A stretch of 64,000 nucleotides of DNA from a virus (IMGVR_UViG_3300008267_000780:10718-74717), one strand, 5' to 3'; counted from the stretch's first letter, positions 11,207-61,003 are shown. The notes: a model not told the origin generated them from the letters alone. Numbers and translations: made by a program.

Positions 11207-12318
11207 AACTATTAAAATTAACCAAACAGGAAGTTGCAAAACTTCAAAAGCAATACAAATTTGGGTCTGATTTATCCAAGCAAGACGTAGTAGTCAAAAT
11301 ATTTAACCCTTATGGTAGGGGAAGATGGTATTTGGTAAATCAAGACCCTAAGGACCCTGATTACATTTGGGCGATTGTAGATTTAGGGATGGGACCTGAA
11401 GTTGGCTCAGTGAGTTTGAGCGAACTGCAGAACCTGCGAATGCCTGTATATGGGTATAAATTCCCGTTGGAAAAAGACAGATTTACACAACGAAATGCTG
11501 TCGAAGTTTTTGAAGGATTGCAGCGCGGCAATTATTTTGCAGATGGTGGAGAAATCAAAGTAGAAGTTGCTCAAAAAGACATTTACAACAAAAATCATTA
11601 CAAAGGTATATTCCAAGATTCCGACAAAGACGGTGTTCCTGACATTGATGATGCACAACCGAAAAATCCAAAATTACAGGGAGAGGTTGAAGAGTTGAAG
11701 TTCTCTCAAGTGTTTGATAGGCTAATAAAAACGAAAAGGTCTTTGGACAAAATTATGAGGGCGGCTATCTCAAAACTCAAGGTGATTTCCCCTGTAGGAA
11801 GTACGATTTATGCTCGAACCAAAACGCCTTATTCCATAATCAACAAATTGATTAATAAAAAGTCTACGAGCCTTGAAAGAAGCAAATTGGGTGATGTTGA
11901 AGGTTTGACGGATTTAATTGGAACCACAGTAGTTGTCAAAAATTTGAGTGGTATCGAACAGGTATCAAAAGAATTAGACAAAGGCGCATTGGGTGAAATA
12001 TTGGAAAAAAAAGATTATTACGAAAACCCAAAAGCGGGTTATCGTGCAATTCACTACATCACCATTTTTGAGGGTGTTGCTATTGAAGTGCAATTGAAAA
12101 CTTATCGTCAAAAAGAAATCAATGAGGCCTCTCACCAAGCGTACAAATACGAAAATCTTGAAGCGGACCGTTTGTTGTATTTGACCAATTTGGCGAATGA
12201 GGCTGATATGGGAGACCGAAAAGCCCAAATAGAAATTGACAAAATTTTCCTCGATAAAAAAGCCTTAAAGGAATCTTTGTACAAAGACAAAGTCAGAGGA
12301 AATAAATTACCTTCGTAA
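11203..12318 (+). CDS. DUF2958-like domain + FADGG linker + RelA/SpoT (small alarmone synthetase-like) domain
   Basis: KIFNPYGRGRWY..VDLGMGPEVGSVSLSEL; DSDKDGVPDIDD Ca-binding-like loop; RTKTPYSIINK, DLIG, KDYYENPKAGYRAIH, EVQLKT. Confidence 0.8.
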   Translation: MKLLKLTKQEVAKLQKQYKFGSDLSKQDVVVKIFNPYGRGRWYLVNQDPKDPDYIWAIVDLGMGPEVGSVSLSELQNLRMPVYGYKFPLEKDRFTQRNAVEVFEGLQRGNYFADGGEIKVEVAQKDIYNKNHYKGIFQDSDKDGVPDIDDAQPKNPKLQGEVEELKFSQVFDRLIKTKRSLDKIMRAAISKLKVISPVGSTIYARTKTPYSIINKLINKKSTSLERSKLGDVEGLTDLIGTTVVVKNLSGIEQVSKELDKGALGEILEKKDYYENPKAGYRAIHYITIFEGVAIEVQLKTYRQKEINEASHQAYKYENLEADRLLYLTNLANEADMGDRKAQIEIDKIFLDKKALKESLYKDKVRGNKLPS

Positions 12319-14840: not shown

Positions 14841-15194
14841 ATGGAAAATTTAACAGGAGCACCCGCAGCAGCCGCAGCACCCGCTGCCCCCGCAGCCCCC
14901 GCTGCACCCGCAGCACCTGCAGCACCCGTAATGGCGCAAGGTGGTAGTGTAGCAGATGCCGCACCGAAAATGGTAGAGGGTGGCGACGTTTCATCAATAG
15001 AAACCAATTGGGGAACTTGGATTGCAATTGGCTTGGTGTCACTTACGCTTGTTTCATTGATTTTACAGATTGCTGTACATCGCAAAAATTTAAAGAAAGT
15101 CGATGCAGACGATGAAGCATTGCAAAAAGATGTCAGGGAACTGAAAATGAATGTGAAAAAACAAATGGGCGAAAAGTATGAAACCTTGGCTTGA
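14841..15194 (+). CDS. membrane protein with (AAP)n linker and MAQGG/MVEGG motifs
   Basis: ATG at 14841; TM WIAIGLVSLTLVSLILQIAV. Confidence 0.75.
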   Translation: MENLTGAPAAAAAPAAPAAPAAPAAPAAPVMAQGGSVADAAPKMVEGGDVSSIETNWGTWIAIGLVSLTLVSLILQIAVHRKNLKKVDADDEALQKDVRELKMNVKKQMGEKYETLA

Positions 15195-15825
15195 CGAAGT
15201 CACGTATGGCAACCCAAATGATGAATTACTTCCCTATTTAGAAAAAGGGGAGTTTGATTTCGTATTCGAAGCACTCAAAAAATTCCCACCGCCTAAAAAT
15301 TCTTCGGAAACTACGCGGGATGAAATGAGAGAACTTATTTCGATTCAGAACTCTCCTGAGCAAAAAAACGAAGAAATTATGTCACGGTATTTGAACTATG
15401 ACAAAAATTTCGGAGATGTATTCAAAACTTATTGCAAAGACACAATAGGGGAAAATATGGATGACGTAATCGACCAAATTACAAAAGATGGTTTTTACGT
15501 CCTGACAAAATTAAAATTCTTTTACCAAAGGCCGCGTCCCTATCAGTTGGCACAATATTTAAGGGCGCGTCTTTTTCCTTATGCTGCAGCCACCGCTTTG
15601 ACACCTGCATATCCTTCAGGACACTCGTTTGAGTCATATGCTTTGGCAGAATATATTGGAAGTAAGTATCCCGAACATTATCAGTTTTTGACTGATTTAT
15701 CACACGATATATCAATTAGTCGATTATTTCTTGGATTGCATTTTGCCACTGATTTAGATTTTGGCAGATTTGCGGCTAAGAAATATGTAGGCTCAAAGCA
15801 ATTTGCAAGTAAATATGGAATATGA
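15178..15825 (+). CDS. PAP2/haloperoxidase-superfamily phosphatase
   Basis: KFFYQRPRP, YPSGHS and SRLFLGLHFATD motifs 1-3. Confidence 0.85.
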   Translation: MKPWLDEVTYGNPNDELLPYLEKGEFDFVFEALKKFPPPKNSSETTRDEMRELISIQNSPEQKNEEIMSRYLNYDKNFGDVFKTYCKDTIGENMDDVIDQITKDGFYVLTKLKFFYQRPRPYQLAQYLRARLFPYAAATALTPAYPSGHSFESYALAEYIGSKYPEHYQFLTDLSHDISISRLFLGLHFATDLDFGRFAAKKYVGSKQFASKYGI

Positions 15826-16228
15826 ATTTCTCGTAACACCAATCGGCAAGCCGAGAATGACCCAACGGGACAAGTGGTTAAATCCACCCCGTAAACCAAT
15901 ATTGAATTACAGAATTGCAAAACACGGTATTCAACATTATGCCTGTGAACAAAATTTTACTTTGCCCGAAATAATTAATGTTATTTTTGTTTTACCTGTT
16001 TCAGAATCTTGGAGCAATAAGAAAAAAACATCAATGATTGGGCAGCCACATCGCCAAAAACCCGATTTGGATAATATCCTCAAATTTTTGATGGATAGCC
16101 TTCTCCCAAACGGAGGTGATGAAGTTGTGCATACCATAAACGCCCGTAAAATTTGGGGTGAACACGGTAAAATATTAATTGAAACAAAAAATGACTCGAC
16201 AACGGAAAATCGAAACGAAGCCAATTGA
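15815..16228 (+). CDS. rusA: RusA-like Holliday junction resolvase
   Basis: PIGKPRMT and KPDLDNILKFLMDSL..DE motifs. Confidence 0.8.
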   Translation: MEYEFLVTPIGKPRMTQRDKWLNPPRKPILNYRIAKHGIQHYACEQNFTLPEIINVIFVLPVSESWSNKKKTSMIGQPHRQKPDLDNILKFLMDSLLPNGGDEVVHTINARKIWGEHGKILIETKNDSTTENRNEAN

Positions 16229-18772: not shown

Positions 18773-19471
18773 ATGAGTAATATCCGTAAATACCTTGCTG
18801 ACGCACAGAATCGTGCTCACGAGGGCTTCTTGAATGCCGATGGCTTCTTTGATGACGATTTGAACTTCACCGCAGGTGATGATTTTATGTCTGCTAATGG
18901 CGACCCTATGCCTGCAGCGGCTCCAACCTCTCAGCCTTACATCATCCAAATTGCAAACACAGGTAGTGCTGTTTCCAATTTCAGTGTGTTGGGTTCATAC
19001 GAACAGTTGAGTGATACGGCAGCGTTCACTTCAGGTTCGTACACTTCAGGAAACGTGACGATTTCGTCTGCTATTCCTAACGTGACTTACCAACAGATGC
19101 TTTACCAATTTATGAACAACCCGTTCAGCATTGGTTTGACTTACATTCAGTCAGCATCAAGCACTCAGTTGTTGGAAACAATCAGCGTACAAACACGTGA
19201 CGCGAATGGTAACTTGGCACAAAAGCCATTGGTGCCAACCGTGGACCCATATCAGTTTCAGACTACAGTCCTTGCTCTCCGCTTCGGATACAGAATCGAT
19301 GGTTACACCAAATTGATTTTGAACCAAGTGTTAGCATCGACCACTGTGAAATTGTACTTGTACCCTGCAGACAACATCAATTTGGCTCGTGGATTGTCAG
19401 GTCGCGCTGTATCAAAAGATTTCAGCAGCCCAGGCATTGTGCGTGCTCAAACCGTGAAAATTCAGGGTTAA
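18773..19471 (+). CDS. candidate major capsid protein (single jelly-roll-like) with acidic N-terminal leader
   Basis: beta-strand-rich 232 aa; follows the packaging ATPase; own promoter and terminator; TTC/TAC/AAC codon preference suggests high expression; paralogues at 49961-50772. Confidence 0.65.
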   Translation: MSNIRKYLADAQNRAHEGFLNADGFFDDDLNFTAGDDFMSANGDPMPAAAPTSQPYIIQIANTGSAVSNFSVLGSYEQLSDTAAFTSGSYTSGNVTISSAIPNVTYQQMLYQFMNNPFSIGLTYIQSASSTQLLETISVQTRDANGNLAQKPLVPTVDPYQFQTTVLALRFGYRIDGYTKLILNQVLASTTVKLYLYPADNINLARGLSGRAVSKDFSSPGIVRAQTVKIQG

Positions 19472-19493
19472 TCCCTCTTTTGCGATTGAATAG

Positions 19494-19531
19494 AAAAGGG
19501 GCGAAGGCAAACAGCCTCGCCCCTTTTTTTT
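19494..19531 (+). terminator. rho-independent terminator after the MCP candidate
   Basis: aaaaggggcga...tcgccccttttttt. Confidence 0.85.
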
Positions 19532-19554
19532 AATACTCACAAACACAAATATTT

Positions 19555-19725
19555 ATGGCCTACAAAGTCAAATTGGGTAACAAGGATTACTTCACAGAAG
19601 AATTTTCTTCTGAGACGGAAGCAAAAAGAGCAAAGTATCACGCCATCATTGGCGCGAAAACTTTTCGTAGTGCATCAAAATCGATGGACACGAAAATTGT
19701 AAAAGTTGTAAAAAAGAAAAAATAA
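19555..19725 (+). CDS. 56-aa basic protein (not in the ORF track)
   Basis: MAYKVKLGNKDYFTEEF...KKKK; TAATG coupling. Confidence 0.65.
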   Translation: MAYKVKLGNKDYFTEEFSSETEAKRAKYHAIIGAKTFRSASKSMDTKIVKVVKKKK

Positions 19726-20108
19726 TGACAATCTACGAGTATATCGCGCGAAATAATCCCACAGGTGCTAAAAGGGTGATTGAATCTTTTGGTTATGTGG
19801 TGACACAACCTAAAAAAATGGGCGATAACCTTCGTATGTTGGTAGCGCAGGAAGGAGAGCCCGCATTAAAAGCGGTGGTAGACTTACACCCTGATAAAGA
19901 CTTGATTTTGGAAGTTTTCGGAAACAGTCAGGGCGTTAAAGGAACAGGAGATAATTTCTTTGGAGCCGACGGCCTACTTCAAAGCGCAGTTTTGAATAAC
20001 AACCAACAGCAAAATGATAGCAACAATAAAATGGTGCTTCAAACAAACACATTAATTGTGGCCTTATCACTCCTTGTAGTTGCAGGGTTAATATTAAAGA
20101 ATCGATGA
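19725..20108 (+). CDS. tail-anchored virion membrane protein
   Basis: C-terminal TM; NFFGADG motif. Confidence 0.75.
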   Translation: MTIYEYIARNNPTGAKRVIESFGYVVTQPKKMGDNLRMLVAQEGEPALKAVVDLHPDKDLILEVFGNSQGVKGTGDNFFGADGLLQSAVLNNNQQQNDSNNKMVLQTNTLIVALSLLVVAGLILKNR

Positions 20109-20647
20109 AAAATTTGAAACCTAACGAAATTTACGCTGTATCAGCGATGACCATCGACAACAATACTGAAGGGGTAAAAACTCTGATTACAAAGTATGGT
20201 GTCATTTTGCCAAAAAATGCAAGTCGCGCAGATGTTGACAAAGCATTTGCGGCACTTTTAAGAAAGAGCAAATCGTTTAGAAATGATTTTGCTTTATTGG
20301 CTGCGAATGAAAGTCAAAAGAGCGATAACTTCTCCAATTTTATGGAATTTTTAGGTATGTCAGGCAGAGGTATTGGAACCACAAGTGCTCCTTTAAAAAC
20401 TCCTGACCCAATTCCTGTGAAGACAAGTTTGCCGAACACAACTGCTAAAAAACCAAGTGCATTTGCTGAAGCGTTTGATGCTGATACAATCAGAAATGTC
20501 ATCAATACAGGATTGAATATTTGGGCTACCCGCTCAGGTACGACAGCCGCAACTACAAATGATTTACAATCAGGTAGGGATTCATTGAATCTACAACCTC
20601 AAAATGAATCTACACGGGGTATCGGTACTACAGGAATCATCAGTTAA
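20105..20647 (+). CDS. putative virion protein; C-terminal TM apparently missing
   Basis: 180 aa; FSNFMEFLGMSG motif; ends abruptly at GIGTTGIIS. Confidence 0.7.
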   Translation: MKNLKPNEIYAVSAMTIDNNTEGVKTLITKYGVILPKNASRADVDKAFAALLRKSKSFRNDFALLAANESQKSDNFSNFMEFLGMSGRGIGTTSAPLKTPDPIPVKTSLPNTTAKKPSAFAEAFDADTIRNVINTGLNIWATRSGTTAATTNDLQSGRDSLNLQPQNESTRGIGTTGIIS

Positions 20648-20653
20648 AAAGTA

Positions 20654-20878
20654 ATGGCAAACGAATTTCAAGACGCTTTAGACAATGTAAAAGAACTGAG
20701 TGGACAATCTACTCACGATACCTTTTTGAAGCAAAGCAAACGCATTATGAAGGGCAGTGCTACGGGTCTTGTAGTTGGTTTGATGTACGGATGGTACACT
20801 AAGAAAAATATTTATGTCACTGCGATACTTGGTGTAATTGCAGGAGGTGCAGTTAACTACTTTATTTTTTCAGAATAA
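20654..20878 (+). CDS. 2-TM membrane protein
   Basis: two Gly-rich hydrophobic segments. Confidence 0.75.
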   Translation: MANEFQDALDNVKELSGQSTHDTFLKQSKRIMKGSATGLVVGLMYGWYTKKNIYVTAILGVIAGGAVNYFIFSE

Positions 20879-20879
20879 T

Positions 20880-21299
20880 ATGACCTTGGATTCAGCAATA
20901 AAATATAAAGATTTTTCAAACCCAAGCATAGTGTTGGCAAGGCCCATCAATATCCAATCGGGTGCGGATGGTAGTCTATCGGTGAGCGGTCCTAAAGGAG
21001 CGGTACAATTAAAATTGACCAAACCGTTAACCATAACAAATGCTCAAGGGAAAAATGAAATCATAGAAAAAGGTGGTATTGTTTGGGGAATGCCATTGCA
21101 ATCAATAGCCGCGAACAATTCTTATTTGTATGAAACACAAGGAAGGGTTTATGTTTTAACGGTTGGTGTCAATGCTGAATTATACAATCCATCGTCAAGC
21201 CCAAGAAAGGGTGAAGAATCGAAAAAAGGTTTTCCTGTTTCCGTAATAGGATTGGGTTTAATTGCAATCGTGATAATTTATACAATAAACAAGTTATGA
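20880..21299 (+). CDS. tail-anchored membrane protein
   Basis: ATG at 20880; C-terminal TM. Confidence 0.7.
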   Translation: MTLDSAIKYKDFSNPSIVLARPINIQSGADGSLSVSGPKGAVQLKLTKPLTITNAQGKNEIIEKGGIVWGMPLQSIAANNSYLYETQGRVYVLTVGVNAELYNPSSSPRKGEESKKGFPVSVIGLGLIAIVIIYTINKL

Positions 21300-21397
21300 A
21301 AATTGCTGATGATAAAAAGAAAAAAGGTGGTGCATTGATGCTTGTAGGCTTTGCCTTACTCGCTTATGTTGTTTATAAAATAATCGAAAGTAAATGA
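21296..21397 (+). CDS. 33-aa membrane protein (not in the ORF track)
   Basis: MKIADDKKKKGGALMLVGFALLAYVVYKIIESK; ATGA overlaps on both sides. Confidence 0.65.
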   Translation: MKIADDKKKKGGALMLVGFALLAYVVYKIIESK

Positions 21398-21618
21398 AAA
21401 AAGAATATATTGAAGCCCTTGTTTTGATTGGAGCCATCGGTTTTGCTATTTATTTGGCAAGTCCCAAAGACTCCGTATTGAAGAGTGCAAAAGCGAATTC
21501 GCCAAATCCCACAGGACCTAAAGGGGGATTTGAGAATTTCACTGCAGACGAATTAACTTATGACGACCATTTGTATGGAAATGCAGATGGAGGATTAAAA
21601 GGTTTAACACTTAAATAA
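21394..21618 (+). CDS. membrane protein with FENFTAD/YGNADG motifs
   Basis: N-terminal TM. Confidence 0.75.
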   Translation: MKKEYIEALVLIGAIGFAIYLASPKDSVLKSAKANSPNPTGPKGGFENFTADELTYDDHLYGNADGGLKGLTLK

Positions 21619-21626
21619 ATAAAACT

Positions 21627-21716
21627 ATGACAAAAAACACTAAAACAATCTTGACTGTAGCCGTAGTTGCTACCGTTTTGTTCTTCGTTTTCAAGAAGCC
21701 TAAAACTGACGCTTAA
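21627..21716 (+). CDS. 29-aa membrane protein (not in the ORF track)
   Basis: MTKNTKTILTVAVVATVLFFVFKKPKTDA; aaaact leader. Confidence 0.6.
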   Translation: MTKNTKTILTVAVVATVLFFVFKKPKTDA

Positions 21717-21727
21717 TTTTCATCAAA

Positions 21728-22210
21728 ATGAATCGTGATGTATTATTGGGCGCGGGGGTCGTTTTGGCCTTTATCGTCCTTGTAAGCAGAGCCAAGAAAA
21801 ACCAAGTTTCCGAACCTTCAGGTGGCGGTGGTGGAGGTGGTATGGGCGGTCCTTTCGTTGCAGGAATACCTGCAGGACCTTTGACCGTGAATACTATTGT
21901 TCAACCCGCACGTCCCGCGAACCAAGGTCAAGTAATTACAACCTTGGGCACAAAAGACACTACTCCAACTGCAGCGGTTACAAGTTCTACTCAAGCCAAA
22001 GCAATTGATACTGCGACTAACACGGGTGGAATTATTCCTATAGGTCAAGGTGGAAGTTCTACTCCCACTTACAGCACAGGAACTGTTACTCAAGCGGATT
22101 TAAAGTCAGGTGTTGCAGGTAACACGGTTTTCAAGCCTTTCAGCGGAGCATCAATTGATGCAAAATTCTTGGGATTTGTAGGTTCAAGGCCTAAATTTGA
22201 ATTCAATTAA
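21728..22210 (+). CDS. membrane-anchored Gly/Thr-rich protein
   Basis: N-terminal TM; low-complexity body. Confidence 0.75.
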   Translation: MNRDVLLGAGVVLAFIVLVSRAKKNQVSEPSGGGGGGGMGGPFVAGIPAGPLTVNTIVQPARPANQGQVITTLGTKDTTPTAAVTSSTQAKAIDTATNTGGIIPIGQGGSSTPTYSTGTVTQADLKSGVAGNTVFKPFSGASIDAKFLGFVGSRPKFEFN

Positions 22211-22211
22211 T

Positions 22212-22493
22212 ATGTTGTCAGCAAATAAACTATACAAAGATTCAGGAACCACTTTGTCGTTCAAAGAATGGTTGGAGCGTGAAAAGGCAAAAGGCAAATT
22301 TATTCCTAACGTGCAAGCGATGGAAGAATTTGTAAATGCCGATGGTGGTGTTTCAGAGCAAGCCTCTGAAAAATCTCAAATCACAGCCAAATCAGTCGAG
22401 AACAAACAACTGTTTACTTCCGTGGCTCGAGTCGGTTTAATTGTTGTATTGGCATATTTCGTTTATCGAACTATCAAAAGTGAAGTTAAATAA
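22212..22493 (+). CDS. tail-anchored membrane protein with FVNADG motif
   Basis: ATG at 22212; C-terminal TM. Confidence 0.75.
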   Translation: MLSANKLYKDSGTTLSFKEWLEREKAKGKFIPNVQAMEEFVNADGGVSEQASEKSQITAKSVENKQLFTSVARVGLIVVLAYFVYRTIKSEVK

Positions 22494-22704
22494 CACTCAA
22501 ATAAAGCGCATACTGATTGCAGGGGGATTTTTCTTCCTGCTTTTGCGTTTTCGGGGATATTTAAATCCCGCGAAAGAAACTTTGTCTGCTAAAGACGAAT
22601 CTTTATCAGCGAGTGGTACGAAAACCGTTATTGATAGGGCGATTGACAAAATTAGAAGTGGCGGGGTAAAAGTTGCAAGCACTCCATCTGAAATAACAAA
22701 CTGA
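22480..22704 (+). CDS. membrane protein
   Basis: GTG at 22480; TM ILIAGGFFFLLL. Confidence 0.65.
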   Translation: MKLNNTQIKRILIAGGFFFLLLRFRGYLNPAKETLSAKDESLSASGTKTVIDRAIDKIRSGGVKVASTPSEITN

Positions 22705-23486
22705 TGAAAGAAGAAAGAATTGCTACCAAATATGCTCCCGTTACGCTTTGTGTGGTTTTGAAAACAGAGTTCCCTACCAAACTCAATTTGGTAGTGTTCG
22801 ATGCAAAAAACCCCAAAAGGAAATTCACTGAGCGTTACAAAACTGTTACAGGCGAAGAAACCCTGTATGTTCGAATGCCGTTGTCTCCTGATAACGCTGT
22901 CGTTCAAGTTTTTTCGCACGGTGGAATTGCAAAAAAGAATGACCCAAACTTCAGTATTGTAAGGGTTTACAAAAAAGGTTTGGAGCGTCGGTTTGATTTG
23001 AATGATATTGGGAATCCCCAAATACGCTCATTCGTCAAATTCGCGCAGAAATTTTGTTTTAATGTGAGTGAGTTGGAGCCCGAAGAAACTTATCGAAGTG
23101 ATGACGGTGAATACTTTATTCAGTTGAAGCAACAGATAAAAGATGCAAACGGAAAAGTGTTGGGTACGCCCGCACGTATTGGCCGTAGAACAGGTGTTAT
23201 TCAAGTGAGTAAAACCCAATTTGAGGCCTTTACAATTCCTATGCGTATGGCAATTTTGCTACACGAATTTTCCCATTTTTACTTGAATGAAAAAATGGAT
23301 GATGAAATGGAGGCAGACTTAAATGGATTGTTGATTTACCTTGGTCTTGGATATCCAAGAATTGAGGCTTATCAAGCGTTCCTCGAAACATTCAAAAATG
23401 CACCAAGCAATTTGAATAAGAAACGCTACGATATGATTAATAACTTCATCAACAATTTTGAGAAAATGGACATTGTAATAAAATAA
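22704..23486 (+). CDS. zincin metalloprotease (HExxH), candidate virion maturation protease
   Basis: AILLHEFSHFY followed by EMEAD third-ligand motif. Confidence 0.7.
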   Translation: MKEERIATKYAPVTLCVVLKTEFPTKLNLVVFDAKNPKRKFTERYKTVTGEETLYVRMPLSPDNAVVQVFSHGGIAKKNDPNFSIVRVYKKGLERRFDLNDIGNPQIRSFVKFAQKFCFNVSELEPEETYRSDDGEYFIQLKQQIKDANGKVLGTPARIGRRTGVIQVSKTQFEAFTIPMRMAILLHEFSHFYLNEKMDDEMEADLNGLLIYLGLGYPRIEAYQAFLETFKNAPSNLNKKRYDMINNFINNFEKMDIVIK

Positions 23487-23488
23487 AG

Positions 23489-23908
23489 ATGGCAGTTACA
23501 AATTGGAACACAGCACCTGATTACGATGAATGGGGCCCCGATAAGTCTTGGGGTTGTGAAGATTGGATACAATGGCACAAATTGCTCAAATTAAAATTTG
23601 GCGCAGTTAAAGCCAACTATATTTGGAATTATGCATATGCCCAAGGAACACAGGGAGCGTCCCATTGGAGTTGCAGGACAACAAATACTATGTTCCGAAA
23701 TTATGTGGCAAAGGAAGGTTTGAATCCATATGAAAGTGCGGGTGCATTTGCGCCTATTTTGAATGTTATTGGTGGCGCGGGCGATGTAGTCAGTGGCACG
23801 GGTGATTTACTGTCAGATATTGGTAAGAATTTAAAAATCATCGGGTACATCGCAATTTTGGGTGTAGCCGTGTATGTGGGAATAACCGTTTATAAGAAGA
23901 CAAAGTGA
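23489..23908 (+). CDS. tail-anchored membrane protein
   Basis: Trp-rich N-domain, C-terminal TM. Confidence 0.75.
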   Translation: MAVTNWNTAPDYDEWGPDKSWGCEDWIQWHKLLKLKFGAVKANYIWNYAYAQGTQGASHWSCRTTNTMFRNYVAKEGLNPYESAGAFAPILNVIGGAGDVVSGTGDLLSDIGKNLKIIGYIAILGVAVYVGITVYKKTK

Positions 23909-24066
23909 TGAAAAAGGAAATATTGTATGCGGGTGGTATTTTGGTTGCTTTGGGAGCGATTTATTTCATTGTGAAGCAATATAAAAAGAATCAAGATGGG
24001 TCAGCCGCGTTGGATGACAAGGAAATCGTTGATTTATTGAAAAAAATTGATTCGGCAAAAAAATGA
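23908..24066 (+). CDS. 52-aa membrane protein (not in the ORF track)
   Basis: MKKEILYAGGILVALGAIYFIVK...; coupled at both ends. Confidence 0.7.
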   Translation: MKKEILYAGGILVALGAIYFIVKQYKKNQDGSAALDDKEIVDLLKKIDSAKK

Positions 24067-24593
24067 GTACGGAAAAAGGATTAAAATATGGGTTTTTCTT
24101 TATCGCAGGGGTTGCAGTAATTCTTGGTGTTGTTCTATTGGGTAAAAAGAAGCCCGATGACGATGACGAAAATCCAAATCCTGAGCCTACACCAATGGAC
24201 CCTGTAATTGACCCTGTTCAAGCATCAGTTCCGCAAAATCTTGCAACTATTCTTGCAAGCAAGGACCCTATTGTAGCATTGAAGGGTAGGAAGATTTATG
24301 CAAAAGTTGCCAATGCAAAAGGTAGGAAAACCCCATATGTAAATGACGGTATGGTAAACAACCTTGCATTCGAATCACTGAACGGTGAGTATCTTGGGTA
24401 TCCTACAAGAGTCGGTAACGATTTAAATGGTGCTAAAGATGCATCAGGAAAAGTTTACAAGTGGATTAGAGTTACACTCGACACGAAATCGTGGAATAGG
24501 TATAACGATACCAAATCATTTTTGACCAAACAAACTTTTATGAATAACGGAAATAACTTTGCGTGGTTCAGGGAGGACGTAATTAAATTATAA
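24063..24593 (+). CDS. membrane-anchored protein, possible SH3b-like domain
   Basis: N-terminal TM, PEP linker, KWIRV...AWFREDVI. Confidence 0.6.
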   Translation: MSTEKGLKYGFFFIAGVAVILGVVLLGKKKPDDDDENPNPEPTPMDPVIDPVQASVPQNLATILASKDPIVALKGRKIYAKVANAKGRKTPYVNDGMVNNLAFESLNGEYLGYPTRVGNDLNGAKDASGKVYKWIRVTLDTKSWNRYNDTKSFLTKQTFMNNGNNFAWFREDVIKL

Positions 24594-25141
24594 TGAAAAA
24601 GCAAGCAATTGATAAAAATTTGAAATACGGGCTGTACGTTTTGTCGGCCCTTATTGGTGGTTTTGCAGTCGTAAAAATTGTAAAAGCAATTAAGGATAAT
24701 GCAGATAAAGGCGATGATGAAAACAAACCTGAGCCTGAGATTAAAACAGTTTATGTAGACACATACCTGTCAAAGTTGCCTTTAGGGGTGGATAATTTGA
24801 CTTGGGGCTCTAAAGTACCCGCTAAGTATTTGCCAACTTTTAATGCAAGCACAGCCGCGAGTACAGATGCAACATACAAAGCGAATGCAATACGCGTTCA
24901 AACTTTGTTAAATCAAAGACTTGCCGCTTTGGGAGGTGGATATCCTAAATTGGTAACAGATGGTATCATAGGTGGTGAAACAACAAAAGCAATGATTGTA
25001 GTTGCAAAGCAGTATGACAAAATGAATTTGTTGCCTTTAACCAAAAAAGAAGACATTAATAATTGGCTGACCTTTTTCAATGTAAAAACAATATCAGGAG
25101 ATTCCTCACAAACAGGTGAGTTTCCTTTTTTCAAAAAATAA
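24593..25141 (+). CDS. membrane-anchored protein with peptidoglycan-binding (PG_binding_1-like) domain
   Basis: N-terminal TM; RVQTLLN..LVTDGIIGGETTKAM. Confidence 0.65.
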   Translation: MKKQAIDKNLKYGLYVLSALIGGFAVVKIVKAIKDNADKGDDENKPEPEIKTVYVDTYLSKLPLGVDNLTWGSKVPAKYLPTFNASTAASTDATYKANAIRVQTLLNQRLAALGGGYPKLVTDGIIGGETTKAMIVVAKQYDKMNLLPLTKKEDINNWLTFFNVKTISGDSSQTGEFPFFKK

Positions 25142-25153
25142 GACGACAAGAAT

Positions 25154-25714
25154 ATGGACATAGATTCTTTTTTCACAGATGGCGACCTAAGTTTCGGAAT
25201 GGACGGTTCAAGCCCTAATTTCAAAAACCTTACAGGAACAGGTCAAAATGTTTCTCGCGGTCCCAAATATGGCGAGTATGAATTCAATAAGAACCCTGAA
25301 TATGGGTTTACTGATGATATTTATTCAAACGCTACGGGTACTTCAAGATTAAATCAACCTACGGAATGGTACGTTACCAAGTTGTCTGATGCAGACAAAA
25401 AAGACTGTAACAAATTACAGGGTGTAATGGATAATATCTCCAAGGATATTGATACCAACAATAAAAAAATGGCCACTGCAAAACGCGGTGAAAGAAGGGT
25501 TCTTGAAGAATATAACAAGGGTTTGGAATTGGCAGGTAAAAAAGTCTTGGAATTGATGAATGCGGCTAATTGCACCGTCATTCAGCAGGCAGAATTTAAT
25601 AAAGCGTTGGGTGTAGCGGGTTCCCCATCAAAATCATCAAAGGTGATTTTGTATGTTGGCATTGGCGTTGCTGCATTGGCTCTTGGAGTGGTACTTTACA
25701 AAAAATTTAAGTAA
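25154..25714 (+). CDS. tail-anchored coiled-coil virion protein
   Basis: FGMDG, FKNLTG, YSNATG motifs; C-terminal TM. Confidence 0.75.
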   Translation: MDIDSFFTDGDLSFGMDGSSPNFKNLTGTGQNVSRGPKYGEYEFNKNPEYGFTDDIYSNATGTSRLNQPTEWYVTKLSDADKKDCNKLQGVMDNISKDIDTNNKKMATAKRGERRVLEEYNKGLELAGKKVLELMNAANCTVIQQAEFNKALGVAGSPSKSSKVILYVGIGVAALALGVVLYKKFK

Positions 25715-26454
25715 TGAGAACAAACATCAGTAAACAGTTAGGATTGCCCGTTGCTCCCCCAAGAGCAAAAGCCCCATCTATAGAAAAACAGTTGGGTTTT
25801 GTGGCCGAATATGATAAGTCTTTGGATTCAAGCAACTTGAATTTCTTTGCGGAAAATGACAAGTATTTTAATGCTTCAGGAGAAACAAAGAACTTTAATG
25901 AGTACTATAAAGGGAGTGAAGCCTCAGTGCGCTCTGTATTAGAGGGCTTAAAAATAAACACGTCTGAAGACTTGGACTATCTTGAATCTGAGAAAAAAAG
26001 ATTTCAGGAAGGCAAGGCAACTTTAGAACGCGATATTAACGCCATCAAAATAAATCAAGCGCAAAAAGCATTTGGTACTCAAGCCTACACTCAGCGTGGA
26101 AAATATGTTTCTCAATTATGGTCCGTAGATAAAACAATCGAGGGAATTGACAAAAGAATTGCTGATGTCAAGGTTATTTTGGAGAAAAAAGCCGCAAAAG
26201 CGAAGGCTGATGCAGAAGCCGCTGCAGCGAAAATGAAAGCAGAGGCTGAAGCCGCAAAGCAGGCAAAAATTGCCGCGTTGAAAAAGCAGATTGCTGATTC
26301 AAAAGACCCAAGTGTAAAAAAACAACTTACTGACGAACTCACAGGACTTTTGCAAGAAGGAACTGAAGGGCTTAAATCAAACAAAATTGTTTTGATTGGT
26401 GGAGCCGTGGTTGTAATCGGTGTTTTGTATTACTTTTTTAGGAGCAAGCAATAA
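25714..26454 (+). CDS. tail-anchored coiled-coil virion protein
   Basis: YFNASG motif; AK-rich coil; C-terminal TM. Confidence 0.75.
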   Translation: MRTNISKQLGLPVAPPRAKAPSIEKQLGFVAEYDKSLDSSNLNFFAENDKYFNASGETKNFNEYYKGSEASVRSVLEGLKINTSEDLDYLESEKKRFQEGKATLERDINAIKINQAQKAFGTQAYTQRGKYVSQLWSVDKTIEGIDKRIADVKVILEKKAAKAKADAEAAAAKMKAEAEAAKQAKIAALKKQIADSKDPSVKKQLTDELTGLLQEGTEGLKSNKIVLIGGAVVVIGVLYYFFRSKQ

Positions 26455-28550: not shown

Positions 28551-29320
28551 TGACCACAAGCGTTTTAACCACGAGTTTAGCAAGGAACATAAATACCGTT
28601 GAAGGTAATGGTCTTTATATTTTCCTCGATGACTCGGATTATGTGTTAAAGTTAAAAGACGTTGATGGAAATATACAGCCTGTTTCAGACTTCGTAGGAA
28701 GTGGTGGAACAAGCGGTGGTGGTATTCAATCAATCAATGCCTTAACAGCGGCTGCTCAATTTTTGACAACGGGTACTTCGGGTAGTGATTTTGCCGTACA
28801 GTCTTCAGGGAATACACACACTTTCAATTTGCCTGATGCGAGTACGAGTGCACGCGGTGTGGTAAGTACGGGCCCTCAAAATATTAAAGGTGTCAAAACA
28901 TTTACGGACAACGCATTTTTTCAAGGGGATGTGGACATTTTGGGTACGCTCACAGCGGAAGCCAAATCGTTCTTGATTCCTCACCCCGACCCCGATAAAC
29001 AAGGGTGGGATTTACAACACGGAAACTTAGAAGGTGGTGAACACGCGATTTATTATCGAGGCCGCATTCAAGGGACAAATATGATATATCTACCTTCATA
29101 TTGGAAGTTTTTGGTTAGTCAACACAGCATCACGGTGCATTTGACAAGTGCCAAAGGCGACTTCAATTATTTCGTAGAAGATGTGACTTTAGAAAGTATT
29201 CGAATTGCAAAATCCGTAGGAGATTGGTTTTCCTACGATTGCTATTTCATAATTCACGCTGAACGACGAGATATTGGCAAATTGAAGGTGGAGATTACAC
29301 CTCAAGAAAAGCAATATTGA
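28550..29320 (+). CDS. fibre/spike protein
   Basis: QNIKGVKTF repeat and KSFLIPHP...LEGGEHAIYYRG..LPSYW C-terminal domain typical of phage fibres. Confidence 0.65.
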   Translation: MTTSVLTTSLARNINTVEGNGLYIFLDDSDYVLKLKDVDGNIQPVSDFVGSGGTSGGGIQSINALTAAAQFLTTGTSGSDFAVQSSGNTHTFNLPDASTSARGVVSTGPQNIKGVKTFTDNAFFQGDVDILGTLTAEAKSFLIPHPDPDKQGWDLQHGNLEGGEHAIYYRGRIQGTNMIYLPSYWKFLVSQHSITVHLTSAKGDFNYFVEDVTLESIRIAKSVGDWFSYDCYFIIHAERRDIGKLKVEITPQEKQY

Positions 29321-31287
29321 TGAAAAGAATACTCCATTTAATACCTCACCTCAGTACGGGTGGGTGCCCCCAATTCGCTTACGACTTATTAAGAAAAACC
29401 AAAGACACCACAGATGCTTATGTGGTGGAATATGCATTCATTGCTTGGGACTATGTCGTTCAAAGAAATCGAATTATTGATTTAATGAAAGACAGGTTTT
29501 ACTCTTTGGGAGAACAGAAAGAGCAACTGTTTGACATTATTGATACGATTAAGCCTGATGTTATCCATATTCAAGAATTTCCCGAATATTTTATGGACGA
29601 TGAAATTGCCCGTAAATTGTACGATAATAATCGGGAATATGTAATTGTAGAAACGAGTCACGACAGCGGGTTCAATCCCGCGAATAAGCGTTTTTTCTCA
29701 GACCATTTAGCATTGATAAGCCAATGGCAAATTGATAAATTTAAAGATTACGATATCCCAATAACTCTATTGGAAAGTGACATCGAATACAAAACCAAAA
29801 CTCAAAATCAGAGAGAAGAAGGGTTGTTAAAACTTGGATTAGACCCAAAGAAAAAACACGTTTTAAACGTGGGGTTATGGACAAGCAGAAAAAACCAAGC
29901 GGAAGTCTTAGAGTACGCAAAAGAACTCGAAAGGTACCCTGACATAGAATTTCATTTTGTTGGAAATCAGGCCCCTAATTTCGAGAATTATTGGGGTCCA
30001 CTGATTCACAATCTACCATCAAATGTGCAAGTTTGGGGAGAACGTAGTGATGTAAATAGTTTTTACGAGTGTATGGACCTGTTCCTGTTTACATCCCGAG
30101 GAACCAATGGCGATATGGAAACGAGCCCGTTGGTGCTAAGAGAGGCGACAGGGCACCAAATGCCGATATTGATGTATAACCTGCCTGTCTACCTCGATTA
30201 CTACAACAAATTCCCGAATATCAAATATTTAACCGACTTCAAAACAAACGTAAATTTGATTTTGTCGCTATTAAAAATTCAAGAAGAATTCCCGAGCAAA
30301 TTATTCAAATTTGATTACGGAATTACGGATAACAAAATCTTCATTAACTATCAAAAAGACAGCAAAATGGAGGTTTGGTTTTCAATATGCGATACCGACA
30401 CAAAGCACGCAATTTATGCTTTCAAAGGAGAGTTTGAATACAAATCCTCAATGTGGGTAATTCCTATTCCGAAAGATGCTTTCGACAATATTTACAATTC
30501 AAAAGGAAATTTCAGAGGGTATGAAATATCTGTTTGGGACAGTTTGCAAGAAAACCAATTAGAGAGCGAAATTATTTGGTTAAATAAGAATTTACCTATC
30601 CCAAATTATAAAGTATTCGAAACTAATCCTTGGAATTTCACTTGGTCCAACTACAATGAAATGTTCATTGATAAATATTATGAAAAAACAAACATCGTGG
30701 TTGGTAAGGTTTGCTTAGATATTGGGGCAAATGATGGTTTATTTACTGAATGGTTACTGAGCCAAGGTTCTGAAAAAATTTATGCAATTGAATGCGACCC
30801 AAGATGCATAAAATTTTTAAATAAAAAATTCAATTCCAATAAAAATGTGACTGTAATAAACAAGGCTTTATGGAAGGAAAATCAAAACGAAATGAAACTT
30901 TATTACGTTGATGATACTTCGGTGTTTAGTAGTTTGAAAGAAGAGGGAAATTGTAAGGGTAAAAATTATTATGGTGTTTGCTCTTGGGATTTTACAACTT
31001 TGATTAGTAAACACAATATCAATAAAATAGACTTATTCAAAATAGATATTGAGGGCGCAGAATATGAGGTATTTGAATCGATGACAAATGAGCAAGTTAA
31101 TCAAATCAATTCATTCTTAATCGAAATACATTTAAACACTAACGGTCAAGTTTATAAAATAACGGACAGATTAAAAATGTTAGGTTATGAAATACAGTTC
31201 AGAGAGCATAAAAATAACAGTTTGATAAATAATGAATTGGATTGGAAAAATTATGAATGGGCTTATTTAACAGCAACTAAAAAATAA
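29320..31287 (+). CDS. GT4 glycosyltransferase + FkbM methyltransferase fusion
   Basis: HLSTGGCPQ, RKNQ, ETSPLVLREA; LDIGANDG and KIDIEGAE. Confidence 0.85.
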   Translation: MKRILHLIPHLSTGGCPQFAYDLLRKTKDTTDAYVVEYAFIAWDYVVQRNRIIDLMKDRFYSLGEQKEQLFDIIDTIKPDVIHIQEFPEYFMDDEIARKLYDNNREYVIVETSHDSGFNPANKRFFSDHLALISQWQIDKFKDYDIPITLLESDIEYKTKTQNQREEGLLKLGLDPKKKHVLNVGLWTSRKNQAEVLEYAKELERYPDIEFHFVGNQAPNFENYWGPLIHNLPSNVQVWGERSDVNSFYECMDLFLFTSRGTNGDMETSPLVLREATGHQMPILMYNLPVYLDYYNKFPNIKYLTDFKTNVNLILSLLKIQEEFPSKLFKFDYGITDNKIFINYQKDSKMEVWFSICDTDTKHAIYAFKGEFEYKSSMWVIPIPKDAFDNIYNSKGNFRGYEISVWDSLQENQLESEIIWLNKNLPIPNYKVFETNPWNFTWSNYNEMFIDKYYEKTNIVVGKVCLDIGANDGLFTEWLLSQGSEKIYAIECDPRCIKFLNKKFNSNKNVTVINKALWKENQNEMKLYYVDDTSVFSSLKEEGNCKGKNYYGVCSWDFTTLISKHNINKIDLFKIDIEGAEYEVFESMTNEQVNQINSFLIEIHLNTNGQVYKITDRLKMLGYEIQFREHKNNSLINNELDWKNYEWAYLTATKK

Positions 31288-31305
31288 ATTATTAAAATTA
31301 AATAT

Positions 31306-33069
31306 ATGACAAACATAGAAACCCCTTTATTTAGAGTAGAGTATGTAAAAGACGAAAACAAGATTTTTGTTTACTACAATGAGAAAAATCCAATTGATGT
31401 CAGTATTTCAGTAGCCGATATAGATTCAAAGCACGCGATTTACGCGTTTGATTCTCATTTCAGGGACTATTCAGGATGTTGGAATGTTCCCGTTCCCTTG
31501 GGCGCATTGCATCACTACAATCGCACGGGATACTTCAGGGGATATGAGGTTTCTATTTACACTGCGGACAGAACTACGCTGTTGGAACAACATACAATTT
31601 GGTACAACGAAAATGCTCCAAAATTTGAGAGAGTTTTGTTCCCGACAGACCCTTGGAATTTGACGTGGATTAACTATACGGAAATGTTTGTTGAAGACTT
31701 TTACAATCCACTCCAAATGAATATCAAAGGTGTATGCTTGGATATCGGGGCTAACGATGGACTGTACACCGAATATTTGCTGCGTAATGGAGCGGAAAGG
31801 GTTTATGCAGTAGAATGTGACCCTCGAAGCATTAAGTTTCTGAACAAGCGATTCAATGGCGACACAAGGGTTGTAATTGTTGACAAAGGTTTATGGAATG
31901 CAAACCAAAACGGTGTAAAGTTAGCCTACAAAGAAGATACAAGCACTGTTTCATCCATCAAAACTGAAGTTCATCACTTCGATGAAAACAATTATTTCTA
32001 CATCGATACTTGGGATTATGCAACCCTAAAAAGCAAAATGAATATCAGCAAAGTAGATTTTTTCAAAATTGATATTGAAGGTGCGGAATATGAGGTTTTC
32101 GAATCAATGACCGATGATGACATTTGCGAAATTGAAGGTTTTATGGTTGAAATTCATTGGAACTCAAATGGTCGTATTTATGGTATCACCGATAGATTGC
32201 AAAGATTAGGATACTCAATCGAACTTCGCAGACACACCGTGGACAATGCTGTAATAGAGAACCGTGATGAATGGAAGGACTACGACCTGTGCACATTCTA
32301 CGCTTCAAAAAAAAAAGAACCTCGGAAGTTTAGTTTAGTCATTCATCACTTACAAACGACTCTGTTGACTGATGTTGAAAAGCAAAGTCGTGATAAAATT
32401 GATTTTCTAATTTATTTGTTGAAAAAAGATTCTCGTTTTAGTGAGGTCAAGTGGTATCGTCATATGAATGCTCCTTGGAAAGAATTACCCACTACCGAAA
32501 ATTGCAATAGACCAAATGCGGTGTCTATGGAACAATTTCCAAATGGCACGAATGAATATGGGCAAACTGCCCTAACACCTGCACATTATGGTTGTTTTAG
32601 AGCATTCAATGATGCCATTCAGATGAAGTTCAATCAGGATTTTTCAGCAACAATGGTATTTGAGGGGGACGCGGACATTCAGGATGTGAATCAATACATT
32701 GAATGCCTATATGCTGCATTGTGCGAGGCCGACAAAAATCAAATTGACTTCATTTCATTCGGAGGCGCGTATCATTTAGAAACAGGCGATTTATTGGCGC
32801 ATCCTGTAGAACGCATTGATGCTTTGCCTTTTGGGTGGATTTCGAAACACGTTCCTTTTGCGCATTCGATAATTATTCCTCAGAGATACATCAGACAGAT
32901 GATGCACGCCTTTGCAAAGGAGCCTTGGGATGTTGCTGATTTATTTTTTATCAATCATTTTAATATGAATCCTGACAGAAGGCAATTTGTAAGTGAAATT
33001 CAACTCAGTCATCAAATTGATGGGTATTCACTAATTGACAAAAAGATTAAAAATTACTTAATCAAATGA
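31306..33069 (+). CDS. FkbM methyltransferase + GT-A (GT25-like) domain
   Basis: LDIGANDG, KIDIEGAE; HYGCFRAF..VFEGDA. Confidence 0.8.
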   Translation: MTNIETPLFRVEYVKDENKIFVYYNEKNPIDVSISVADIDSKHAIYAFDSHFRDYSGCWNVPVPLGALHHYNRTGYFRGYEVSIYTADRTTLLEQHTIWYNENAPKFERVLFPTDPWNLTWINYTEMFVEDFYNPLQMNIKGVCLDIGANDGLYTEYLLRNGAERVYAVECDPRSIKFLNKRFNGDTRVVIVDKGLWNANQNGVKLAYKEDTSTVSSIKTEVHHFDENNYFYIDTWDYATLKSKMNISKVDFFKIDIEGAEYEVFESMTDDDICEIEGFMVEIHWNSNGRIYGITDRLQRLGYSIELRRHTVDNAVIENRDEWKDYDLCTFYASKKKEPRKFSLVIHHLQTTLLTDVEKQSRDKIDFLIYLLKKDSRFSEVKWYRHMNAPWKELPTTENCNRPNAVSMEQFPNGTNEYGQTALTPAHYGCFRAFNDAIQMKFNQDFSATMVFEGDADIQDVNQYIECLYAALCEADKNQIDFISFGGAYHLETGDLLAHPVERIDALPFGWISKHVPFAHSIIIPQRYIRQMMHAFAKEPWDVADLFFINHFNMNPDRRQFVSEIQLSHQIDGYSLIDKKIKNYLIK

Positions 33070-47757: not shown

Positions 47758-48344
47758 TGGCAGTACCAACATCAAATATAAGTATGAGCGCAATTTACGG
47801 GGAGGCCAACGTAGGTGGCCCCCCGAGCGACTTGGCGGTTAGTGACTTATTCAAATTGTCATATTTTGAAAGTAACGCTTTCGGTGGTCCCTTGGCATAT
47901 AATGCTTGGGGTATTTATGGAAATGCGAGTGGCGCAGACAGAATTTATGGACTTTCGGCAAGTAACACCAATAATAACTTTAATCAATTTGCGAGCAAAG
48001 TTTACTATATGGATAATTCAACGTATGCTAACTATGTAGATGTAGTCAACAATTTAGTAGCACCCCCCCCTCCTGACCCACCTGATTTGAACGATATAAC
48101 TGTTTTTTGTAGATTATATGATTCTACAGGTGTTTATCAATATAGTTTGTTTCAGTCCTTAATAGCCGCAGGTGGTAGTGCAAGTCAAATATTTAGTAAC
48201 ACGACTGAACCTATTTTGGCAGTAGCATATTGGGAAGTTCAGTTTCAGCCATCGAGTCCTATGTTTGCAGGTACAACGTGTAATATAGATATAAATAATA
48301 TTAGTAGCATCAAATTCATCAGGGTACATTGGCACTTACTTTGA
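47757..48344 (+). CDS. fibre-associated protein (true C-terminus possibly in another frame, ending 48360)
   Basis: MAVPTSNISMSAIYGE N-terminus typical of genes after S74 fibres; TAATG coupling. Confidence 0.7.
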   Translation: MAVPTSNISMSAIYGEANVGGPPSDLAVSDLFKLSYFESNAFGGPLAYNAWGIYGNASGADRIYGLSASNTNNNFNQFASKVYYMDNSTYANYVDVVNNLVAPPPPDPPDLNDITVFCRLYDSTGVYQYSLFQSLIAAGGSASQIFSNTTEPILAVAYWEVQFQPSSPMFAGTTCNIDINNISSIKFIRVHWHLL

Positions 48345-49644: not shown

Positions 49645-49961
49645 TGGAGTTTTCAAAAGAAGTAAAAAACGCGGTCATCATTGCAGTTGCGACAATTACT
49701 TTATATGTGCTGTTGAAACCAAAGAAAAATAGTCTTAGCAAGCCTATGAAGGCGACTAAAGACGAACTGAGTCAAAAGCAAAATGCTCGAACCATTTTGG
49801 ATGCTTACTTAAATGCAGTTGATGCAAAAGAATCATCAACAGCACTACAGAAATTGAACGCAATTTTTGCGGACGAATATTCAATGAAGGTGTATAAAAC
49901 AAAGAGTGGCAGTTATGTAGCGCGAACCTTAGACGGTAAAGATGTATTAGTAGCAAAATAA
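49644..49961 (+). CDS. membrane-anchored protein
   Basis: N-terminal TM. Confidence 0.75.
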   Translation: MEFSKEVKNAVIIAVATITLYVLLKPKKNSLSKPMKATKDELSQKQNARTILDAYLNAVDAKESSTALQKLNAIFADEYSMKVYKTKSGSYVARTLDGKDVLVAK

Positions 49962-60493: not shown

Positions 60494-61003
60494 ATGAATA
60501 AAAAAGAAATCATACTTATAGCCGCAGCCGCTACAGGATTATACTTGGTGCTTCGTGGATTGAAAAAAAATAATCCAAAAGGTCTTGGAGAAGAGTTTAA
60601 GAATGCTATCGGGGATGTATTCAAGAAAAAGAAGACTTTTGGTCAACGCGCGAATGCAACGCGATGCGAAACCAATCTTGAGCGGTTAGGTCGTTTGTTT
60701 CCGAATGAGGACCAATACAATGCTGAAGTGGGAAAAGCATATCAGACCCAAGGCTCTAATTTTAACTCTTGGGCAAAATCTGACGCTAAACCTTGTTTTG
60801 TAGTTGGTGCGGACCAAGGAGGTCTTCAAGGCGGGGTAAATAACTTCACTGCAAATGATGATTTCTTTAACGGCAACGGCTGTAAAAAGCCTATGAAGTC
60901 GGCATACAATAATTACATCGGCTCAGATGGACAAGGAACTTACTTCAATGCACACGGGGATATGTCGTTAGACAATCTTGTACGTTCATACAAAAGACCA
61001 TAA
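60494..61003 (+). CDS. membrane-anchored virion protein with repeated F/Y-x-N/G-x-x-G motifs
   Basis: N-terminal TM; NNFTANDDFFNGNG, YIGSDG, YFNAHG. Confidence 0.75.
   Translation: MNKKEIILIAAAATGLYLVLRGLKKNNPKGLGEEFKNAIGDVFKKKKTFGQRANATRCETNLERLGRLFPNEDQYNAEVGKAYQTQGSNFNSWAKSDAKPCFVVGADQGGLQGGVNNFTANDDFFNGNGCKKPMKSAYNNYIGSDGQGTYFNAHGDMSLDNLVRSYKRP

Follow-up and report, generated by a model that had tools for sequence, protein, structure and literature searches.

Results

A recurrent hexapeptide in a morphogenetic gene block

We analyzed a 64-kb stretch of viral DNA (IMGVR_UViG_3300008267_000780:10718-74717, hereafter the window), part of an IMG/VR virus record of 74.7 kb that CheckV rates as 89% complete. 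Genes are designated by their first position in the window. Between positions 18,773 and 26,454 lie a candidate coat protein gene (18773), a run of small membrane protein genes and a gene for a zincin metallopeptidase (22704). A six-residue motif recurs in the leader of the coat protein and in several of the membrane proteins. As judged from its conservation, this motif is a real, selected signal, because it forms a conserved island at aligned positions while the linkers around it diverge and change length. An initial annotation had noticed the motif, and had proposed that it is either a cleavage site for virion maturation or a docking peptide. All the peptides it listed are encoded by the genes to which it assigned them, including ENLTG at amino acid (aa) 2 of 14841 and HEFSH at aa 187 of 22704.

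The genes belong to a morphogenetic block that extends from 12.3 to 29.3 kb, with every gene on the + strand. An ATPase gene (17611, + strand, 273 aa, with weak matches to HerA/DUF87) adjoins the coat gene, which is itself isolated by a terminator-like hairpin and a gap of ~340 nt. The block comprises a run of small open reading frames (ORFs), most with one predicted transmembrane (TM) helix at the N- or C-terminus, and the single-pass TM ORFs number ~25. No match to Terminase_6N or to the HK97-type Phage_capsid was found anywhere in the 74.7-kb record. With a HerA/A32-type ATPase beside the coat gene, small membrane proteins and neither terminase nor HK97 capsid, the gene kit is, on sequence grounds, that of a tailless internal-membrane virus. 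The group has no relative in culture that we could find, as the 18773 protein gave no tblastn match in 50,697 phage records. Searches of Pfam and PHROGs yielded no family for the coat candidate, the protease or the motif bearers, and our literature search returned no description of the virus group, the motif or a role of the protease.

The coat protein candidate and its leader

The candidate major capsid protein (MCP), 18773 (18773..19471, + strand, 232 aa), is predicted to consist of a helix (aa 2-16), a disordered acidic leader (aa 17-50) and a jelly-roll core (aa 52-232). Its family has more than 1277 members in a 90%-clustered collection, forming 598 clusters at 50% identity. Three motif copies follow one another in the leader, and the conservation of the first two was read from an alignment of 23 close homologues (64-86% identity). 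In the first copy, FLNADG (aa 19-24, 18827..18844), residues A22, D23 and G24 are invariant, as is the following F25. The middle hexad, LNFTAG (aa 30-35, 18860..18877), has an invariant F32, with L30, S31 and T33 conserved in at least 90% of the sequences; most relatives have LSFTAG. In the third copy, FMSANG (aa 38-43, 18884..18901), which ends ~9 aa before the core, G43 is invariant and A41 is conserved to at least 90%. Among 68 homologues, down to 28% identity, the leader consensus is still Y-F-x-x-A-x-x-x-x-N-x-x-F-x-x-A-D-G. After it come at least one further [FY]xxA[DN]G copy, in a leader of variable length, and then the conserved TSQPYI start of the core.

An AlphaFold2 (AF2) model based on the 68-sequence alignment has a predicted local distance difference test (pLDDT) of ~97 in the core, a confident beta-sandwich, and below 50 at aa 18-41. 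The flexibility that the initial annotation attributed to the motif segments is thus borne out for the MCP leader; for the other bearers it was judged from alignments, which are gappy and variable there. Structure searches with the model reached Z scores of 5-6.6 at best, largely to viral jelly rolls (grapevine fanleaf virus, PR772 penton P31, FLiP, phiCjT23 and PBCV-1), and Foldseek against the PDB gave E values of 3e-3 or weaker. A PDB profile search with the 18773 alignment found nothing relevant. The core is modelled as a single, not a double, jelly roll, and its fold matches are compatible with this assignment, not diagnostic. We consider 18773 a candidate for the MCP, a role in keeping with its abundance and conservation and with its transcription as a separate unit. 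It may instead be a penton, minor or second capsid protein.

A leaderless paralogue of 149 aa (49961-50410, + strand), which matches the family profile at E=8e-6, is encoded 30 kb downstream, and may be a second capsid protein or a penton. It is followed by an unassigned ORF of 120 aa (50410-50772). A 102-kb relative (G001, 100% complete) has six coat jelly-roll copies, one leader-bearing and five leaderless. Of the leaderless copies, two form a single tandem protein of 397 aa (L036 10001-11194), which by its sequence is a natural single-to-double jelly-roll fusion within one family. As the leaderless paralogues start exactly at the core, the leader is a separable module.

Motif-bearing membrane proteins

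Outside the MCP, the motif occurs in proteins that, as initially claimed, are otherwise unrelated. BLAST searches among the bearers found nothing significant outside the motif segments: the strongest matches (E 0.003-0.04) cover these segments, and the rest are far from significant. For example, MCP aa 31-49 matches aa 117-137 of 60494 with 57% identity (E=0.003). A longer unit, NFTA-x-[DE][DE]-F-x-x-x-N-G, was common to the coat leader, 21394 and 60494 in these comparisons.

Protein 19725 (19725..20108, + strand) has a conserved N-terminal domain, a variable linker with the motif FFGADG (aa 78-83, 19956..19973) and a C-terminal TM helix (aa 105-123). The form F-x-G-A-D-[GAS], or a variant differing by one residue, is kept in ~70 of 80 full-length homologues; orthologues have NF[FILY]GADG, and distant ones YLNAVG or YLNAAG. 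In 20105 (+ strand), the motif-like FLGMSG (aa 82-87, 20348..20365) stands where orthologues have FSNANG, YSNAVG or YKNACG. In the orthologue of locus L008 (11171-12154), the motif region is made of ~6 tandem 16-residue units, each with F-D-G-S-V-G. By its sequence, this expansion is a rapid change in the copy number of the signal. Compared with a 93%-identical orthologue (L001 11335-12112), the gene at 20105-20647 has undergone a deletion that removed its C-terminal TM anchor and the next small membrane ORF, and in this genome the protein ends ...GIGTTGIIS, without an anchor.

The N-anchored 21394 (+ strand, 74 aa) carries near its C-terminus a bipartite unit, FENFTAD (aa 46) followed by YGNADG (aa 61), covering aa 46-66 (21529..21591). 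In BLAST comparisons it resembles MCP aa 31-44 and 60494 aa 110-128. The tail-anchored 22212 (+ strand) has FVNADG (aa 40-45, 22329..22346). Orthologues with at least 48% identity retain EF-x-NADG, and in the two most divergent ones the motif has decayed to MLNLLG. The leader of 25154 (+ strand, tail-anchored, TM helix at aa 164-182) contains FGMDG (aa 14), FKNLTG (aa 23) and YSNATG (aa 57) within 25193..25339, and orthologues of 29-35% identity have kept D[LM]SFG[MF][DT]G at the N-terminus. In 25714 (+ strand), a coiled-coil, tail-anchored protein, YFNASG (aa 51-56, 25864..25881) lies in the leader, and orthologues of 25-76% identity have YFDATG, FLSADG or FLNAGG at the aligned position.

Two bearers are encoded outside the block: the membrane protein 60494 and the product of 47757, the gene after the probable giant fibre gene described below. 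The first is N-anchored, and has FFNGNG, YIGSDG and YFNAHG near its C-terminus (60863..60958, + strand), outside the 18773-26454 stretch. The second is an uncertain member, with YGNASG (47916..47933, + strand) in surroundings rich in G, N, A and S. Two peptides of the initial list fared less well. FLGFVG (21728, aa 147, + strand) is present and kept solely in the closest relative, which makes it a weak instance. ENLTG of 14841 is lost even in an 88%-identical orthologue, and was dropped.

From the positive-inside rule and the tail-anchored arrangement of the proteins, all motif copies are predicted to lie on the cytoplasmic face, the future capsid-facing side of the membrane, where the coat protein and the soluble protease would also be.

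Frequency of the motif

The pooled logo of 104 non-redundant instances, from this genome and its relatives, reads [ED]-x-[FY]-x-[NGS]-A-[DSN]-G. In whole-protein shuffles, the pattern of the initial annotation was expected 1.57 times and observed 11 times, and [FY].NA[DSTNH]G was observed 7 times vs 0.12 expected. Local composition rich in Asp, Asn and Gly was controlled for by shuffles confined to windows of 15, 25 or 40 residues. [FY].[NGS]A.G has 10 copies in 8 proteins of the 74.7-kb genome, vs ~1.5 expected, and 0 of 1000 local shuffles reached this count; all these shuffle figures are generous, the pattern having been set after inspection. In an unbiased count over all proteins, Y.NA.G ranked 2nd of 12,417 exact gapped patterns, with similar z-scores for other patterns. 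Statistics on this one genome are therefore supportive, not decisive, and conservation is the stronger evidence.

The initial annotation had expected the motif to be commoner in virion proteins, and it is indeed commoner in the morphogenetic block, with 7 copies in 5,970 aa vs 3 in the 17,914 aa of the other proteins (p=0.0035 in a Fisher test). We also examined 14 diverse related loci (20 kb). Twelve of them, with coat identities of 30-75%, had 1-6 motif matches each, and all but one of these loci 2-6, vs 0.2-0.5 expected. The matches fell in 1-6 different proteins. The other two loci, both small, had none.

A zincin metallopeptidase among the motif bearers

The initial annotation had placed an HEFSH metalloprotease among the bearers, and this holds. 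Protein 22704 (22704..23486, + strand, 260 aa) has an N-terminal beta-sandwich (aa 1-94) and an HExxH domain (aa 105-258), and 1710 homologues were found. HEFSH (aa 187, 23262-23276, + strand) lies on helix 178-194 of the AF2 model (pLDDT 88), whose C-domain is alpha/beta. All 30 homologues aligned share H187, E188, H191, E201, E203 and D205, and HE[FY][SA]H is retained by the homologues in all related loci. E201, E203 and D205 are at the start of helix 201-214, and either E201 or E203 is a candidate third zinc ligand in this metal-free model.

The best fold match of the C-domain is BepA/YfgC (6sar_A, M48; Z 8.6, root mean square deviation 4.0, 118 aa, 16% identity), followed by 3c37, a putative M48 (Z 6.8), Ste24/ZMPSTE24 (Z 6.2-6.3) and abylysin (Z 6.1); these Z values are moderate, near the level where a common arrangement alone may explain a match. 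Foldseek against the PDB gave weak matches with the model, and a PDB profile search with the 22704 alignment nothing relevant. No Pfam family matched 22704 itself at E<=0.1. When 30 homologues were searched, all matches were below threshold, the best being PhageMetallopep (0.0021), then M56 (0.016), M48 (0.026) and SprT-like. By its model, 22704 is a zincin with an M48/M56-like fold, outside every curated family. Judged by its active-site residues, it is catalytically intact, and it is a credible zincin and a core gene of the group. No other peptidase, including Ulp1-like or prohead proteases, was recognised among the window proteins scanned.

Wherever a related locus leaves room for it, a homologue of 22704 accompanies the leader-bearing coat gene, even where the coat protein has 30% identity. 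Both genes are present in the complete 102-kb relative. Locus L036, which comes from this genome, was considered as a leaderless-coat exception and rejected, because the source genome also encodes the protease and a coat protein of the canonical type, with a leader. Four of the protease-less loci (L011-L014 and L033) have no match to the MCP profile in their called ORFs, and the two source records searched, those of L033 and L013, are fragments, 26% and 8% complete. Among the relatives, we found no case of the motif without the protease or of the protease without the motif, so that phyletic patterns do not separate the hypotheses discussed below.

A related peptide and a predicted protease-leader complex

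In a multi-module protein of 1255 aa (7439-11206, + strand), linkers of the form [MFYL]-x-x-G-G occur 15 times, usually as MAKGG or MADGG. [MFY]A[KD]GG linkers recur in the orthologues of this protein in L001, L008, L018, L021 and L034. The linkers and the hexapeptide have an A-[DK]-G core in common (compare YADGG and FADGG with NADGG). The linker layout suggests processing, being typical of it and hard to explain otherwise, and the protein may represent a second substrate class of the zincin.

Modelling of a motif peptide with the protease had been proposed initially. Briefly, 22704 was modelled with coat aa 1-60, and the predicted complex scored 0.57 vs 0.02 for the best of 3 controls, which lends weak support to an interaction. 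Of 80 solved complexes, 58 reached the mark that it passed, as did 2 of 110 mismatched pairs; among complexes passing with scores of 0.60 or less were 7 of the 80 solved complexes and both of the passing mismatches. The runs agreed in at least 49% of contacts, with a partner pLDDT of at least 46. In the model, it may be the helix and not the motif that is placed on the protease.

Discussion

Possible cleavage of the motif by the zincin

The reading that we favour, while holding it tentatively, is that 22704 recognises the hexapeptide and cuts at or beside it during assembly, possibly after docking. Recognition by 22704, any cleavage, the scissile bond and the topology are all points that we infer. 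The motif would be displayed on disordered segments of the coat and of virion membrane proteins, and read by the soluble 22704. The cut would free the coat protein, 25154 and 25714 of a helical leader of ~40-55 aa (the initial annotation put the coat propeptide at ~43 aa), while in 19725, 20105 and 22212 it would detach the N-domain from the membrane anchor. The leader may first gather the proteins and then be removed, in a load-then-cut order.

We favour cleavage because an intact, near-universal protease sits in the motif-bearing block, and because the motif offers a hydrophobic anchor with small residues and Gly, located in flexible stretches where domains meet, much like adenain and poxvirus sites. 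The last leader copy, just ahead of the coat core, adds to this, as do the 15 related [MFY]-A-x-G-G peptides that punctuate a neighbouring protein. The predicted protease-leader complex, which passed its mark, points weakly in the same direction.

Several points weigh against this reading. First, tandem copies (3 in the coat leader, 3 in 60494, ~6 in the L008 orthologue of 20105) are superfluous for cutting, and thus favour multivalent binding. Second, the best-conserved copy of the coat leader is the one furthest from the core, and the final Gly is Ala or Ser in about one quarter of the 19725 homologues. Third, metalloproteases usually choose a hydrophobic P1' residue, not small residues, and we know of no M48/M56-type enzyme that acts as a virion maturation protease. 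The protease may serve the [MFY]AxGG protein, entry or lysis instead. Finally, in the score band of the predicted complex most passes are false, unless the pairing was already probable on other grounds.

Docking, sorting and other explanations

A less likely explanation, and still a serious one, is that the motif is an uncut, multivalent docking or sorting peptide, by which the coat protein and certain membrane proteins would share a single partner, be it the coat core, an assembly factor or the beta-sandwich of 22704. Membrane proteins would then be sorted into a patch of host membrane enclosed by the capsid, and the membrane would be tied to the shell. This would account for copies that are tandem, acid-flanked, aromatic-anchored and located in disordered regions, for their amplification in one relative, and for the leader copy adjoining the conserved helix being the most conserved. 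The predicted location of the motif on the soluble, capsid-facing side in all bearers fits as well, and the weak protease-leader score suits binding as well as cutting. However, AF2 left the leader undocked on its own core, the protease, intact throughout the group and encoded in the same block, would need another job, and the pattern of small residues is commoner in cut sites than in binding motifs.

The cleavage and docking readings are compatible with each other. A combination of them, which we regard as rather unlikely, is a coat-sorting code: the capsid lattice or an assembly factor would pick the membrane proteins and zip the membrane to the shell, and the zincin would then erase the motif, making assembly irreversible. 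If true, this would be a bacterial-virus counterpart of adaptor-motif vesicle coating, combined with a maturation protease that arose independently of adenain, the enzyme of eukaryotic jelly-roll viruses.

Unlikely as well is the proposal that motif and protease are unrelated. The zincin would then act on the [MFY]AxGG protein, in entry or lysis, or on host proteins, while the hexapeptide would be a conserved structural turn or another modification site, for instance for glycosylation. The 15 conserved [MFYL]xxGG linkers of 7439-11206 are an obvious alternative substrate, and several motif copies happen to be N-x-[ST] sequons (NFT, NLT, NAT, NAS). Yet Asn is replaced by Gly or Ser in 39 of the 104 non-redundant instances, the +2 residue is more often Asp than Ser or Thr, and most relatives have SFTAG, not NFTAG, in the middle hexad. 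Moreover, the A-x-G found in both motif classes argues for one reader, not two. N-glycosylation as a common function was rejected, aromatic-x-N-x-[ST] not being enriched (14 vs 11.6) and Asn often being Gly or Ser.

That the motif is a chance product of acidic, Asn/Gly-rich disordered composition and of a post hoc pattern is very improbable: the pattern was indeed fitted after inspection, other exact patterns have comparable z-scores and two of the first instances (14841, 21728) are not conserved, but local shuffles never reached the observed count, and the conservation data, with the motif holding its aligned positions as linkers diverge and recurring in independent families of relatives, largely refute this idea.

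An EF-hand-like or DxDxDG calcium loop, a sortase/exosortase-type signal and an isopeptide tag were also considered, and rejected because position 1 is aromatic, at least 20 residues separate the motif from the TM helix and none of the invariant residues is reactive.

Comparison with known systems

Adenain (AVP) cuts at (M/I/L)XGX-G and (M/I/L)XGG-X in adenovirus pIIIa, pVI, pVII, pVIII, pX and pTP, and the sites of poxvirus I7 and African swine fever virus (ASFV) pS273R are AG-X and GG-X. As in these viruses, a short consensus of hydrophobic and small residues is spread here over unrelated virion proteins, including membrane-active ones, in flexible segments. Also as in these viruses, one virus-encoded protease is a core morphogenetic gene, in a virus with a candidate jelly-roll capsid protein and an A32/FtsK-type packaging ATPase. 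The parallel with adenovirus and poxvirus maturation drawn by the initial annotation is in this respect an apt analogy. It does not extend to the enzymes or the capsids: adenain, I7 and pS273R are Ulp1-like cysteine proteases of eukaryotic viruses, whereas 22704 is an HExxH metallopeptidase of another clan, in a bacterial virus with a predicted single jelly roll, and cleavage is a proposal here. The accepted model has jelly-roll viruses acquiring their maturation protease in eukaryotes (PMC6260650), and a bacterial one would therefore be independent. If the cleavage reading is true, virion maturation by a dedicated protease would have evolved independently in bacterial jelly-roll viruses.

The T4 targeting sequence and gp21 (IPI-III, Alt, gp23) offer a similar case of a common leader on unrelated proteins with a load-then-cut logic; removal occurs at a short consensus in T4, and is proposed here. 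T4 differs in being tailed and membrane-less, with an HK97 fold, an assemblin-type serine protease and the motif L/I-x-E. As for the enzyme, the M48/M56 cowrins and minigluzincins (BepA/YfgC, HtpX, Ste24, BlaR1, abylysin) also have an HExxH helix and then a helix with a conserved Glu. Unlike them, 22704 is soluble, with an N-terminal beta-sandwich and a candidate Glu 10-12 residues past the second His. For docking, the analogy is with the DPF/DPW, NPF and clathrin-box motifs, which are likewise short, aromatic, acid-flanked and repeated, in disordered parts of membrane-associated proteins. These endocytic motifs are read by a coat component, and have no sequence or evolutionary relation to the hexapeptide.

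PRD1, PM2, FLiP and the Sphaerolipoviridae share with the present group an ATPase gene beside the jelly-roll coat gene (a candidate one here), small single-pass membrane proteins after it, and a lytic transglycosylase. Their genomes are of 10-30 kb vs 75-130 kb here, and we know of no protease or shared peptide signal in them. Since the work on PRD1 and PM2 it has been asked how tailless membrane-lined phages choose the proteins of their membrane and link the vesicle to the shell, and to our knowledge no sorting or maturation signal is known for such phages. The hexapeptide most likely serves throughout the virion as a signal for cutting or docking, of a kind undescribed for these viruses. A conserved six-residue code, together with a core zincin, would characterize this uncultured group, which is abundant, with more than 1,200 metagenomic coat homologues, and has genomes of 75-130 kb. 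From sequence, the motif predicts virion components as well as the ends of the mature coat protein.

Other genes of the window

Further genes of the block encode an SLT transglycosylase (13418, + strand), a PAP2 lipid phosphatase (15178-15825, + strand), which lies beside assembly genes, and RusA (15815-16228, + strand). PAP2 and RusA are unusual for a tailless phage, as is the membrane-anchored GDSL lipase/acylhydrolase encoded at 58848-59483. Another accessory enzyme unusual in such a phage is a DUF2958 domain fused to a RelA/SpoT-type nucleotidyltransferase (11203-12318). The product of 23489-23908 is tail-anchored, with a Trp/Cys-rich N-domain, and matches no family, and that of 24593-25141 has a weak PG_binding_3 match. 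Together with the SLT protein 13418, these two may provide several wall-directed functions that are membrane-anchored in the virion.

An ORF of 4183 aa (35206-47757, + strand) has 53-56% G+C, in a genome of 38% G+C, and probably encodes a giant fibre. Upstream of it are collagen-repeat genes, among them 27669 with a Pfam Collagen match, and three large ORFs at 29320-35213.

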